A stretch of 64,000 nucleotides of DNA, taken from contig JAJYIV010000001.1 of NCBI GenBank assembly GCA_021789915.1, positions 375-64,374 on the forward strand. The letters are read 5' to 3'. The notes under the pieces are model-generated. The model was not told the origin of the DNA. It worked only from the letters and a program-made list of their open reading frames with translations, and searched no databases. Each line of letters starts with the position of its first letter. Position 1 is the stretch's first letter. The translations under genes were made by a program, and so were the position numbers. Source of the stretch: a bacterium. GTDB taxonomy: Bacteria; Patescibacteriota; Patescibacteriia; UBA9934; GWF2-40-263. Positions 14,397 through 17,022 of this stretch are shown piece after piece.

Positions 14397-15527
14397 TCAA
14401 TGACTGGTCTGTGGATGAAGAAAAATGTCGACGAGCGTTTCGGCTTCGCTCGGCGCTTTCACCCAGTGAATGCGTGCGTCGCGCTTGAACCACGTCAGCT
14501 GGCGCTTGGCGTATGCGCGCGTGTCGCGCTTGATGTCTTCGATCGCCGCGGCGAGATTCGCTTTGCCGTTCAGGAAAAAAGCGATCTGACGATAGCCGAT
14601 GCCCGTCATGGCGACGGGCAATGCGCCGAGCGTCGGAACCCCCTCAGACTCCCCCTTGGCAGGGGGAGATGACGCAGGCATTAATCCCCGCACTTCGTTC
14701 ACCAGGCCCTTGGCGATCATCTCGTCCACGCGGTCGTCGATGCGGCGGTTCAGTTCGTCGCGCTCGACGTCGAGACCGATCTTGAGCACGTCGTATTTCA
14801 GCTCGCCCTTCACCTGCATCGCGGAGAACGGCTTGCCCGTGACGCGGCAGACTTCCAGCGCGCGCACGAGGCGGCGCTTGTTGTGGCGGTCGATCTGCTC
14901 GGCGCCAAGCGGATCCAAGCGCTTGTATTCGGCGAAGAGATCGTCGAGCGAGCGCGGCTCCAGCTCGGCACGGATCGCCGGATCGGGCGGGACTTCCGGA
15001 ATGGACAGGTTGTCGACCAACGCATCGACCCACAAGCCGGTGCCGCCGACGACGATGGGAAGGTGGCCGCGCTTCACGATTTCCGCGATGCGCGCCTCGG
15101 CATACGCCTTGAATTGCGAGACGTTGAAATCCTCGTCCGGGTCGGCCACGTCGATGCCCCAGTGCGGCACGCCGTCGACCATATACGGCTTTGGGCGGAA
15201 GAGGTCGTGAATGGAGAGACGGCCTGCTCTTGCCTTGCCTTTGTCATCCTGAGCTCCGCCCGCACGCAGACGGGGCGAAGGATCTGACGGATTCTTCGCT
15301 TCGCTCAGAATGACAATGGGGACGGCCCTGTCGCGGATCGGCTTCGCCGTGCCGATGTCCATGCCGCGATAGATCTGGCGCGAATCCGCGGAGATGATTT
15401 CAGCTCCGTTTCCGCCAAAGGCGGATCCGCCTCCGGCGGAGAACCGTTTTGCCAACGCAATGCCGAGCGCGGTTTTCCCGCTCGCCGTCGGCCCGACGAT
15501 CACGATGAGTTTAGGCTTGACGCCCAT
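14397..15527 (-). CDS. miaA: tRNA dimethylallyltransferase with in-frame repeat-element insertions
   Basis: P-loop GPTASGKT, and SADS.QIYRGMDIGTAKP. Carries the in-frame R2 insertion (PIVILSEAKNPSDPSPRLRAGGAQDDKGKA) and a small G/C palindrome insertion (SSPPAKGESEG). Confidence 0.9.
   Translation of the reverse strand: MGVKPKLIVIVGPTASGKTALGIALAKRFSAGGGSAFGGNGAEIISADSRQIYRGMDIGTAKPIRDRAVPIVILSEAKNPSDPSPRLRAGGAQDDKGKARAGRLSIHDLFRPKPYMVDGVPHWGIDVADPDEDFNVSQFKAYAEARIAEIVKRGHLPIVVGGTGLWVDALVDNLSIPEVPPDPAIRAELEPRSLDDLFAEYKRLDPLGAEQIDRHNKRRLVRALEVCRVTGKPFSAMQVKGELKYDVLKIGLDVERDELNRRIDDRVDEMIAKGLVNEVRGLMPASSPPAKGESEGVPTLGALPVAMTGIGYRQIAFFLNGKANLAAAIEDIKRDTRAYAKRQLTWFKRDARIHWVKAPSEAETLVDIFLHPQTSH
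14649..14668. repeat. R3-like short G/C-run palindrome inside miaA (CTCCCCCTTGGCAGGGGGAG)
   Basis: Same architecture as the R3 copies in thrS, GT4 and the subtilase. Encodes SPPAKGE in the miaA frame. Confidence 0.5.
15242..15315. repeat. R2 palindromic element inserted in frame in miaA
   Basis: TGTCATCCTGAGCTCC..CGAAGGATCTGACGGATTCTTCG..CTCAGAATGACA. Length is a multiple of 3 and the reading frame is maintained. Confidence 0.75.
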
Positions 15528-17022
15528 ACAAAATCCACATTTCGGCCTTGTCGATTTTCACGTCGACGATTTGACCGACGAGGTCCTTCCCGCCCGGGAA
15601 GCTGACGAGTTTCATCTCGCGCGAATTGCCAAAACAGGTTCCCGGTTTCTTCTTCAATTGTTCGACGATGTTCCCAGGCATGGCAAGCATTTCTTCCGTC
15701 ACGCGCGGCGGCTCGTGGCGCTCCACGAGCACGGAAACCGTCTGGCCCACGTACGCCTGGTTCTTGGCGAGAACGACGTCCTCCTGGATTTTTTGCAGAT
15801 CGTCCCACCGGCGCTTTTTTTCCGCGCGCGGCACGTCGTCCTTGAACGCCCGCCACGCGGCCGTCCCGCTGCGCGGCGAGTAGCGCGCGGTGTACGAGAT
15901 GTCGAACCCGACCTCCTTGTACAAGGCAGCCGTCTGCTCGTAATCCTCCACCGTCTCGCCGCAGAAGCCGACGATGATGTCCGTGCCGATCGCCATCGTC
16001 GGGTGGCGTTTTTTCACGCGCGCGATCACGTCGAGATATTGCGCGGCCGTGTGGCGGCGGTTCATGCGGCGCAAGACGGCGTCGGAGCCCGACTGTACGG
16101 GCAGATGAAGATAATGGACGTGTGCCGGCAATCCCATCGCCTCGATCACCGCGTCCGTCATGTGCAGCGGATGCGGCGCGGTGAAGTGCAGGCGCTTGAG
16201 GCCGGCGATCTGGTCGATCTCCCACAAGAGCGCGGCGAAGTGATCTCCTCTTTTGTCATCCTGAGGGAGCGCAGCGACCGAAGGACCTGTCGACGGATCC
16301 TTCGCGGAGCCTGCCCTGAGCGAAGTCGAAGGGCTCAGGATGACAAACGATTTTTGGAAAAAAGGATTCGCGGCGGAAAAGGAATCAGGATCCGGCGCGC
16401 GATAACTGTTGACGGTCTGGCCGAGCAGCGTGACCTCGACGCATCCGCGTTCCACGAGGCCGCGAACCTCCTCGAGGATGTCGCGCAACGGACGGTTCTT
16501 CTCCAGACCGCGGGCGAAGGGCACGACGCAGTACGTGCAGAACTTGTTGCAGCCGGTCTGTATCGTCACGAAAGCCTGGCGGACGTTCGGGCGCATCGGA
16601 CGAATCTTCAAATAGTCTTCCTCCGCGTCCGTGCCGTTGACCAAGTCCGGACGCAGCTCGCCGATCCATCGCGGCAGCTGCGGCAAGTCCTTGATCGGAA
16701 AGTACAAATCGACGGCCGCCAATTTCTTGCGCATGGCGCCGTTTCGGTCGCGGCCGGGAAGGCAGCCGGTCACCCCGACGATCAACCGCGGGTTCTTTTG
16801 CTTGAGCGCCTTCCACGCGCGGGCATGGCCGAACACGCGATCCTCCGCCGACTGGCGCACCGAACACGTGTTGACGAGAATCACGTCCGCTTCGTCGTCG
16901 CGATCCGTCGGCGCGAAGCCAAGCCCGTTCAACAGGCCCGCGACGCGCTCCGAATCGTTTTTGTTCATCTGGCAGCCGTAGGTGATGAGCCGGTAGCGCG
17001 GCCGCGCGGCGTCGTGATCCAT
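15511..17022 (-). CDS. miaB: tRNA-2-methylthio-N6-dimethylallyladenosine synthase (radical SAM methylthiotransferase) with in-frame R2 insertion
   Basis: Start at MDHDAARPRYRLITYGCQMN. Radical SAM CNKFCTYC. C-terminal TRAM domain. About 40-aa insertion FVILSPSTSLRAGSAKDPSTGPSVAALPQDDKRGD. 17-bp overlap with the miaA start. Confidence 0.9.
   Translation of the reverse strand: MDHDAARPRYRLITYGCQMNKNDSERVAGLLNGLGFAPTDRDDEADVILVNTCSVRQSAEDRVFGHARAWKALKQKNPRLIVGVTGCLPGRDRNGAMRKKLAAVDLYFPIKDLPQLPRWIGELRPDLVNGTDAEEDYLKIRPMRPNVRQAFVTIQTGCNKFCTYCVVPFARGLEKNRPLRDILEEVRGLVERGCVEVTLLGQTVNSYRAPDPDSFSAANPFFQKSFVILSPSTSLRAGSAKDPSTGPSVAALPQDDKRGDHFAALLWEIDQIAGLKRLHFTAPHPLHMTDAVIEAMGLPAHVHYLHLPVQSGSDAVLRRMNRRHTAAQYLDVIARVKKRHPTMAIGTDIIVGFCGETVEDYEQTAALYKEVGFDISYTARYSPRSGTAAWRAFKDDVPRAEKKRRWDDLQKIQEDVVLAKNQAYVGQTVSVLVERHEPPRVTEEMLAMPGNIVEQLKKKPGTCFGNSREMKLVSFPGGKDLVGQIVDVKIDKAEMWILYGRQA
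16254..16345. repeat. R2 palindromic element inserted in frame in miaB
   Basis: TGTCATCCTGAGGGAGCGCAGCGACCGAAGGACCTGTCGACGGATCCTTCGCGGAGCCTGCCCTGAGCGAAGTCGAAGGGCTCAGGATGACA. Confidence 0.75.

Follow-up and report, generated by a model that had tools for sequence, protein, structure and literature searches.

The 64,000-nt stretch of contig JAJYIV010000001.1 analysed here (the window) contains three copies of a palindromic element, R2: one within the tRNA dimethylallyltransferase gene miaA, one within the radical SAM methylthiotransferase gene miaB and one at the 3' end of a dihydrofolate reductase (DHFR)-like gene. The best matches of the window proteins are found in Candidatus Uhrbacteria and other Patescibacteria. 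The gene miaA (14397-15527, minus strand) encodes 376 amino acids, compared with about 317 in its orthologs, and its product matches TIGR00174 (7e-69) and PF01715 (2e-73). The gene miaB (15511-17022, minus strand) encodes 503 amino acids, compared with about 462 in its orthologs, and its product matches TIGR01574 (2e-116) as well as UPF0004, Radical_SAM and TRAM. Both genes are intact and of full length, with the catalytic motifs present (MiaB keeps the cluster motif CNKFCTYC), and the profile alignments of both proteins are split by an insertion.

A first-pass annotation of the window had placed three copies of one palindrome at 7955-8022, 15242-15315 and 16254-16345, and all three positions were borne out. 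Only the ends needed adjustment: the palindromes within miaA and miaB run 3-5 nt further, to 15238-15319 and 16249-16350. The end motif TGTCATCCTGAG occurs five times in the window when up to one mismatch is allowed, against 0.17 expected from shuffles, and all five matches are ends of the three R2 copies. The central palindrome CGAAGGATC..GATCCTTCG has an expectation of 0 and never appeared in shuffles of the window. When the copies are aligned on both strands, the blocks in common are an outer and an inner stem, and the sequence between the stems varies by copy. The elements measure 68-102 nt and their terminal inverted repeats are perfect over 12 nt. Every copy folds as one long hairpin of -35 to -45 kcal/mol (z -2.9 to -6.8), with -35.5/-37.6 kcal/mol and z -6.8/-5.7 for copy 1. 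A profile of the hairpin unit that makes up each arm (see below), built solely from elements of other phyla, detects all six arms of the window with E = 4e-8 to 6e-4; the arms of copy 1, at 7955-7989 on the plus strand and 7997-8022 on the minus strand, score 4e-8 and 6e-4, respectively. The homology of the palindromes at the nucleotide level, on which the first-pass annotation depended, is thereby supported. The sequence recurs in other assemblies: a 21.5 kb ENA contig spanning all three copies is 99.99% identical to the window, and the identical 503-residue MiaB is found on three contigs from other assemblies. A Logan contig, 100% identical, terminates inside the miaA palindrome, as expected because repeats break assemblies.

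Copies 2 and 3 are read in frame, and the peptides that had been quoted for them are correct. Copy 2 codes for residues 71-96 of MiaA (IVILSEAKNPSDPSPRLRAGGAQDDK) and copy 3 for residues 226-257 of MiaB in the 503-residue numbering (FVILSPSTSLRAGSAKDPSTGPSVAALPQDDK); from GTC to GAC they span 72 and 90 nt, both multiples of three. Copy 3 is longer than the others because one of its arms contains a nested hairpin unit of a second type, AGCCTGCCCTGAGCGAAGTCGAAGG (16308-16332), which was recognized from the copy alignment and from an exact 18-mer in common with 54880-54897. Copy 1, supported by motif matches, hairpin and unit profile, had been regarded as intergenic. Instead, it overlaps the DHFR-like open reading frame (ORF) at 8012-8593 (minus strand; PF00186/PF01872). 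This ORF ends K V V S S stop, its stop codon (8012-8014) lies inside CTCAGGATGACA (8011-8022), and the stretch GTG TCA TCC TGA falls within R2 copy 1, so that the element provides the last four codons (V V S S) and the TGA stop. The other neighbour of copy 1 is a dCMP-deaminase-like ORF (7032-7946, minus strand).

Comparison with orthologs indicates that the segments within miaA and miaB are insertions. The closest orthologs are 65-75% identical and lack them, with the exception of a decayed copy in the MiaB of locus L001. In the closest syntenic relatives of MiaA (L122, L001 and L002; 71-74% identical) GTAKP and I(H/Q/A)(D/S)(L/I)F are separated by 14-15 residues, in the window MiaA by 42, and the extra DNA at this position is essentially the R2 palindrome. 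The insertion was not found in 22 other aligned MiaA sequences, and a signature scan of 119 other MiaA matches yielded no R2-type peptide. In MiaB, L002 and L122 read NPF-(R/K)-DHFA where the window protein has 37 additional residues, which makes two of the three closest orthologs free of the insertion. The third, L001, carries the decayed copy TGCGCCTTCCTGAGCGACAGCGAAGGATATCGAGATCCTTCGGTCGCTGCGCTCCATCAGGAAAGC at the same site; its ends are mutated, it has the private stretch CCTTCGGTCGCTGCGCTCC in common with the window miaB copy, and the unit profile detects it with E = 2.7e-4.

The insertions map to loops, in line with what had been proposed from the sequence. The alignment of MiaA to PDB 2qgn breaks directly after GTAK, between residues 63 and 117, and that of MiaB to PDB 7mjv is interrupted in the radical SAM barrel between its LLGQxVNSY strand and its FAxLL helix. 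In the AF2 model of MiaA (mean pLDDT 80.2) residues 67-110 fall in segments below 50 with essentially no secondary structure; in that of MiaB (mean pLDDT 81.5) residues 222-258 are devoid of secondary structure and 236-252 have a pLDDT below 50. The 26-37 inserted residues are translated as disordered loops and are probably carried as neutral passengers.

The gene miaA holds two further in-frame repeats of types different from R2. Two tandem small hairpins, TCCGCC-AAA-GGCGGA and TCCGCC-TCC-GGCGGA (15411-15440), roughly span the extra peptide SAGGGSAFGGNGA (residues 30-42), and a hairpin CTCCCCCT-GCCA-AGGGGGAG (14649-14668) encodes SPPAKGE, part of an extra segment of some 15 residues (about 285-300, ..SPPAKGESEGV..). 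Both segments are absent in L122 and L002; L001 has different insertions at both sites, with PPARGGMRGGG at the counterpart of 14649-14668. In the MiaA model pLDDT is below 50 at residues 33-38 and 296-302. Three different hairpin repeats have thus settled in one enzyme of 376 residues, in the Candidate Phyla Radiation (CPR), where intergenic space is scarce.

The loop after GTAKP in MiaA varies in length in Uhrbacteria, and some orthologs carry unrelated insertions there. The orthologs P0052, P0098, P0118 and P0120 have unrelated inserts in the loop before GK.NLA, e.g. ...SPSPARGRVGEG and ...SPSPLTKGGLRGV, which look like translated hairpin repeats of yet other kinds. P0043 is a MiaA of 450 residues with additional PF04480 and PF18741 domains. 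The insertion-free miaA loop of L002 reads GAG ATT CTG AAC GCC (ATTCTGAACGC), 10/11 identical to the window element head ATTCTGAGCGA; the likeness may be coincidental or the remnant of an older copy.

Anatomy and distribution of R2

One genome per GTDB species was scanned with the pattern GTCATCCTGAG-N(0-30)-CGAAGGATC-N(2-12)-GATCCTTCG, which requires the doublet. With exact motifs of 11, 9 and 9 nt, this architecture is present in at least 118 genome stretches from at least 10 phyla. The hosts include Desulfosporosinus and Clostridiales (Firmicutes), a cyanobacterium, Alpha-, Beta-, Gamma- and Deltaproteobacteria, Acidobacteria, Omnitrophota, Patescibacteria (Parcubacteria and Saccharibacteria), Ignavibacteria, Planctomycetes, Nitrospirae and Mucilaginibacter (Bacteroidetes). 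Isolates are represented, e.g. Nevskia soli DSM 19509. Among the matches listed, several metagenome-assembled genomes (MAGs) appear with many separate contigs, e.g. the betaproteobacterial MAG VAR_48_concoct_206 with at least eight.

Full elements were analysed as a set of 80 found by the exact pattern and of 115-119 found with one mismatch allowed per motif. Each arm consists of a hairpin unit of 21-40 nt, YGTC-AT-CCT-GA-GC-GAA-GC-GA-AGG-AT-C. It comprises an unpaired 5' tag YGTC, a stem that begins with A-T and T-A (ATCCT/AGGAT) and contains two tandem G.A mismatches, a core formed by a G-C, C-G clamp with a GNA triloop (GCGAAGC) or by a longer private hairpin instead, and a tail of C or CT. 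The part between the stems is most commonly CGAAG, giving ATCCT-GA-GC-GAA-GC-GA-AGGAT, i.e. five Watson-Crick pairs, two G.A mismatches, two G-C pairs and a GAA triloop; variants have GCA, GTA or GGA triloops, GNRA tetraloops or the longer private hairpin. The sequence GCGAAGC is, according to Hirao and colleagues, reportedly a very stable DNA mini-hairpin.

The element boundary lies one base outside GTCAT. Complementary Y/R bases occupy positions -1/+1 in 89 of the 115 elements, and nothing is palindromic beyond. The base pair in question is T left and A right in 62/115 and C left and G right in 26/115; all three window copies have TGTC. In the flanks of the 115 elements direct-repeat identity is at background for all six positions, hence no target-site duplication is seen.

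The two arms have the same variable part in 24 of 119 elements and differ in the remaining 95. Variable parts of at least 8 nt form at least three terminal base pairs in 45% of cases, compared with 2% of shuffles, and give 27 different stems, mostly with GNA or GNRA loops. Because the arms differ and their variable parts pair with themselves, each arm is to be seen as a hairpin unit of its own and R2 as an inverted doublet: two units, usually unlike, placed tail to tail across a spacer of 2-12 nt and able to fold into a single long hairpin or into two small ones. Lone single units exist as well, such as RSFAEAQDD in the MiaB ortholog of L124, and AGATCCTTCGCTGAAGCTCAGGATGAC in a MiaB ortholog. 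The first-pass annotation took a palindrome of 70-95 bp as the unit of the family; this view has to be replaced, since the unit is a single arm resembling a repetitive extragenic palindrome (REP) and the palindrome is a doublet whose arms are usually unlike.

The modal length of the family is 62 nt, and element length shows no three-periodicity across the family. The multiples of three in the window (72 and 90 nt) can therefore be attributed to a filter acting on genic copies and not to a property of the family; against an aperiodic family, these two spans are consistent with selection on frame. At each R2 end one reading frame holds TGA (TCC-TGA, GGA-TGA), and the genic copies read GTC ATC CTG ... 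CAG GAT GAC.

In a MAG of the Saccharibacteria an in-frame R2 doublet lies in the DALR domain of the arginyl-tRNA synthetase, and an LVIVD-repeat protein of the same MAG has a doublet near its C-terminus. Candidates for insertion into ORFs in the GC-rich loci L069, L112 and L063 had no Pfam match. L010 and L121 were set aside as in-ORF cases; there the element is located upstream of the first domain, possibly between genes. Nested or tandem R2 elements were observed in L039 (5873-5976), L099 (2231-2377) and L112 (4705-5525): these cases show one duplicated head (TTTGTCATCCTGAGCACCCC twice), two 68-nt copies 12 nt apart, and two copies inside one open frame of 2107 codons that has no Pfam match.

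The insertion site in miaB

The insertion in miaB is not an isolated case. The decayed copy of L001 is located in the same place, and about one fifth of the Uhrbacteria MiaB orthologs (22 of 120) contain additional residues at exactly the point between NP(Y/F) and (K)DHFA. At least 14 of these 22 carriers contain recognizable R2 peptides. Some represent single units (IKRSFAEAQDDGGG, VKRSLAHARDDKGS and VRSFARAQDDNKG), one a doublet read in another frame (LCHPERSEGS...ELPQND) and one a doublet with the order of the units reversed (SLTSFGMT..CHPEERSDEGS). Elsewhere in the 120 MiaB orthologs no R2 peptides were found. In a neighbour-joining tree calculated after removal of the insertion columns the carriers are scattered, and nearly every carrier has an insertion-free sister. 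The scatter implies repeated gain or loss, some 15-20 events at one codon.

The MiaB loop is a recurrent entry or exit point for the R2 family across Candidatus Uhrbacteria. Three candidate causes can be named for the hot spot: a target preference of the mobilising enzyme, a long-resident unit seeding both additions and precise losses, and an exchange of alleles among related populations. The site constitutes a natural experiment, with dozens of closely related filled and empty alleles in which the insertion and excision junctions of CGTC-tagged REPs can be read. How such REPs move has been an open question since 2013.

Mode of spread, rival explanations and other repeats

We consider it likely that R2 is an inverted doublet, similar to the REP doublets forming hairpins (REPINs), of a hairpin unit of the CGTC/TGTC class of REPs, and that it is non-autonomous selfish DNA whose genic copies have been filtered for frame and loops. 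In this scheme R2 would act as a non-autonomous passenger, copied from a single-stranded hairpin form as has been proposed for REPs. The enzyme would be a trans-acting HUH/tyrosine nuclease of the RAYT (REP-associated tyrosine transposase) or IS200 kind, or a replication or repair activity of the host. Most copies would land between genes; a copy in an essential gene would survive only if its length is a multiple of three, its frame is free of TGA and it falls in a tolerant surface loop. In the window such a filter would have left three copies: that of MiaA in the loop following GTAKP, that of MiaB in the loop preceding the DHFA helix, and the one that replaces the last codons and the stop of the DHFR-like ORF.

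Several observations weigh against this interpretation. The core of R2 is near-identical across phyla, which is unusual for REPs, as these are usually described as species-specific (PMC6006769). The number of copies counted is three, within the 64 kb of this genome that the window covers. A tblastn search with 20 RAYT/TIRYT sequences, rebuilt from a published alignment, gave no match in the window or in the DNA around the copies at about 120 element-bearing loci; with no mobilising enzyme found, the mechanism is therefore drawn by analogy. R2 had no match in 2.9 million viral contigs and just two weak partial matches in 72,556 plasmids, and because it is absent from the former and nearly absent from the latter no vehicle for its spread is evident. 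The miaB junctions of two sister pairs and four close relatives contain 9-19 extra nt beside the unit or doublet, with no target duplication and no clean junction. Finally, the idea of a mimic site, in which the native miaB sequence AAAGATCAYTTYGC would attract the element by its resemblance to the unit tail AGATCCTTCGC, was dropped because equally good 8/11 matches occur elsewhere in empty genes.

A bolder reading, which we regard as rather doubtful, is that R2 is a transposase-orphan hairpin with a core conserved in at least 10 phyla, which repeatedly enters and leaves one codon of miaB in Candidatus Uhrbacteria and decorates other translation genes of the CPR (MiaA, ArgRS). If true, this would mean a site-selective insertion and excision based on single-stranded DNA and carried out by a universal host enzyme instead of an element-encoded transposase, and elements of the R2 type would be a general source of new disordered loops in the proteins of ultra-small bacteria.

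Host selection on a functional structured element could also be invoked: R2 would then stabilise mRNAs, serve as a terminator or RNase hairpin, or bind a repair or nucleoid protein, and its genic copies would be regulatory hairpins inside the mRNA. The stems are indeed strongly conserved across phyla, the internal hairpins vary compensatorily, the folds are stable, and copy 1 lies exactly at the 3' end of a gene, a typical site of REPs thought to act on mRNA. We nevertheless find this improbable, since no Rfam family matches, close relatives manage without copies in the same genes, presence at the miaB site is patchy, the palindromic symmetry gives no strand preference, and the decay in L001 shows that the ends are unconstrained.

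Still less probable is a classical MITE (miniature inverted-repeat transposable element), i.e. the deleted remnant of an insertion sequence whose DDE transposase recognizes the terminal inverted repeats TGTCATCCTGAG and generates a target-site duplication. The flanks of the 115 elements lack any direct-repeat signal, the arms are independent units that are unlike within one element and also occur alone, the inner stem is as conserved as the ends, and the loci showed no insertion sequence whose ends match. What the MITE model does explain is a small multicopy element with perfect terminal repeats that resides within genes. In-frame MITEs exist elsewhere: the QMITEs of Coxiella are reportedly of this kind. 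The Rickettsia palindromic element RPE-1 is a known in-frame MITE as well (PMC10969869).

That the segments are native, lineage-specific loops of MiaA and MiaB merely resembling the repeat, or assembly artefacts, is scarcely credible: the length-variable post-GTAKP loop with its unrelated insertions in other orthologs fits the former, but the loops are homologous to a nucleotide profile from other phyla (E down to 4e-8), one palindrome recurs in three places, the segments are absent in the closest orthologs, and three independent assemblies agree in the sequence.

With R2, selfish DNA inside protein-coding genes is extended to the Candidate Phyla Radiation. For the annotation and modelling of MAGs, such elements explain recurrent low-confidence loops as well as many spurious small ORFs (peptides VILSEAKDL.. 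and ..RSFAALRMT).

The window contains further repeats. A supposed fragment of R2 in a subtilase is repeat-related, at 54873-54897, but does not match the R2 ends; it matches the nested unit of the second type (AGCCTGYCCTGAGCGAAGTCGAAGG, 24/25 identical). This copy has no TGTCAT end, is in frame in the linker of the subtilisin-like ORF (54190-56226, minus strand), where it yields ..PPPSTSLRTGLAGG.. with the in-frame peptide STSLRTG, and matches the unit profile weakly (E = 0.09). In the same linker (54861-54940) a hairpin CCCCTCC..GGAGGGG surrounds the CCTGAGCGAAGTCGAAGG unit, and beside it lies a G-rich repeat (GGGGGGCTGCC...GGCGGGGGGG), of which inverted copies are found at 22486-22526. An inverted pair of 62 nt, 90% complementary, at 22480-22541 and 50922-50983 is possibly a fourth repeat family.

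A second and more abundant family has CGTAGAA/TTCTACG motifs (e.g. AGCGAGCCGAAGGCGAGCGATTCTACG) and consists of GTAG-tagged REP-like units in clusters at 12381-12600, 32452-32640, 47636-47889, 50233-50470 and 51650-51865. Two 238-nt arms of this family, 97% complementary, flank 2.3 kb (47652-50470) with an ORF of 366 amino acids and an ORF that, from its appearance, reads like a glycosyltransferase. At 56339-56969 there is a direct repeat of 268 nt, whose copies are 85% identical and lie 276 nt apart, and after it a 9-nt period (GCCGGNGTN) in ten overlapping copies. Just downstream of miaA (14182-14256, minus strand) ARAGORN calls a 75-nt tRNA-Ser(tga), whereas the sole tRNA of the window at the Rfam gathering threshold is located at 45764-45838. 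A tRNA-Ser that lacks the long variable arm would be unusual.

Comparison with known repeat systems

The REPs have been divided into superfamilies tagged by GTAG and by CGTC (Di Nocera, De Gregorio and Rocco 2013, PMC3733652). According to that paper, the tag of the CGTC REPs is often TGTC (also CCTC), their stems of 8-9 bp start with A-T and T-A, their loops measure 4-5 nt, and their short tails mostly fit CCA. They occur mainly as dimers with outward tags, often heterodimers, in four families (CGTC-1 to CGTC-4) from five phyla, and have no associated transposase gene. CGTC-1 and CGTC-4 of R. conorii are equated there with RPE-6 and RPE-4, respectively. In its supplementary table more than 150 ORFs are given that contain REPs in frame, the dimers coding for 20-30 residues; the hosts include tRNA-modifying enzymes and tRNA synthetases, REP ends provide stop codons, and in-frame dimers are listed outside Rickettsia in Opitutus, Sphingomonas, Rhodopseudomonas, Coxiella and others (PMC3733652).

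R2 shares with the CGTC REPs the unpaired CGTC/TGTC tag at the 5' end, a stem of about nine positions that starts with A-T, T-A, a short loop, a short tail, the outward-tagged dimers that are often heterodimers, the occurrence in several phyla, the in-frame inserts of 20-30 residues, the ends that supply stop codons and the lack of an adjacent transposase gene (about 120 loci in the case of R2). There are also differences. Two of the nine positions of the R2 stem ATCCTGAGC/GCGAAGGAT are G.A mismatches; it is closed by a GNA triloop, most often GAA (3 nt), which becomes a 5-nt loop CGAAG when the C-G pair is left unpaired; and the tail is C or CT, where most, though not all, CGTC REPs have CCA. 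The loop position of R2 often holds a private extra hairpin, unlike that of the CGTC REPs. CGTC-1 back-translated from the listed peptides gives ATTCCCGC-GAAA-GCGGGAAT, and VIPAKAGI implies GTCATTCCCGCGAAAGCGGGAATC, from which the R2 stem differs. By its anatomy R2 appears to fit the CGTC/TGTC-tagged REP superfamily, either as one of the families CGTC-1 to CGTC-4 or as a further one.

The analogy with the Rickettsia palindromic elements (RPEs), drawn in the first-pass annotation, is apt: in both cases repeated palindromic DNA is found in frame in essential genes, at surface positions compatible with the fold. RPEs are said to have been described by Ogata et al. in 2000, and RPE-1, of about 150 bp, is reportedly unrelated to R2. 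To our knowledge RPEs are confined to Rickettsia, unlike the R2 family. The peptides VIPAKAGI, SFPRKRES and VIPWLDHGI (RPE-6/CGTC-1, RPE-4/CGTC-4) differ from VILSEAKNP of R2 after the first 2-3 residues, a comparison of the peptides alone. Since RPE-4 and RPE-6 are assigned to the CGTC class, the likeness is architectural as well as behavioural. The further suggestion that R2 belongs to a different lineage does not hold in that form, as its architecture extends over many phyla and the superfamily, by the published assignment, includes RPE-4 and RPE-6 (PMC3733652).

REPINs resemble R2 in that two inverted REP hairpins, separated by a short spacer, can form one long hairpin, and in that the single-stranded hairpin is the presumed substrate. 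They differ in the tag at the foot of the hairpin, GTAG (GT[AG]G) in REPINs and YGTC in R2, and in their spread: REPIN families are reported to be specific to a lineage and passed on vertically, whereas R2 is conserved across phyla. REPINs and their RAYT transposases are said to go back to work by Nunvar in 2010, Bertels and Rainey in 2011 and Ton-Hoang in 2012. Bacterial MITEs (Coxiella QMITE, ERIC and cyanobacterial MITEs) are, like R2, small and non-autonomous, and add peptides by in-frame fusion. Unlike these MITEs, R2 lacks insertion-sequence-like ends and target duplications and consists of independent hairpin units.

Rfam contains no family for R2, either for the whole window at the gathering threshold or for the element region at E up to 10, the best sub-threshold match on R2 elements being Guanidine-II with 22.7 bits against the 32 required. 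The R2 motif itself was met in the literature only as chance primer matches, and no publication was found that combines CPR or Patescibacteria with REPs, MITEs or REPINs. The in-frame insertion of REPs is a known kind of event, and the claim of a separate lineage and of novelty is to that extent overstated. With respect to the literature searched, the presence of R2 in the CPR, the breadth of conservation of its core and its recurrent site in miaB appear to be new.

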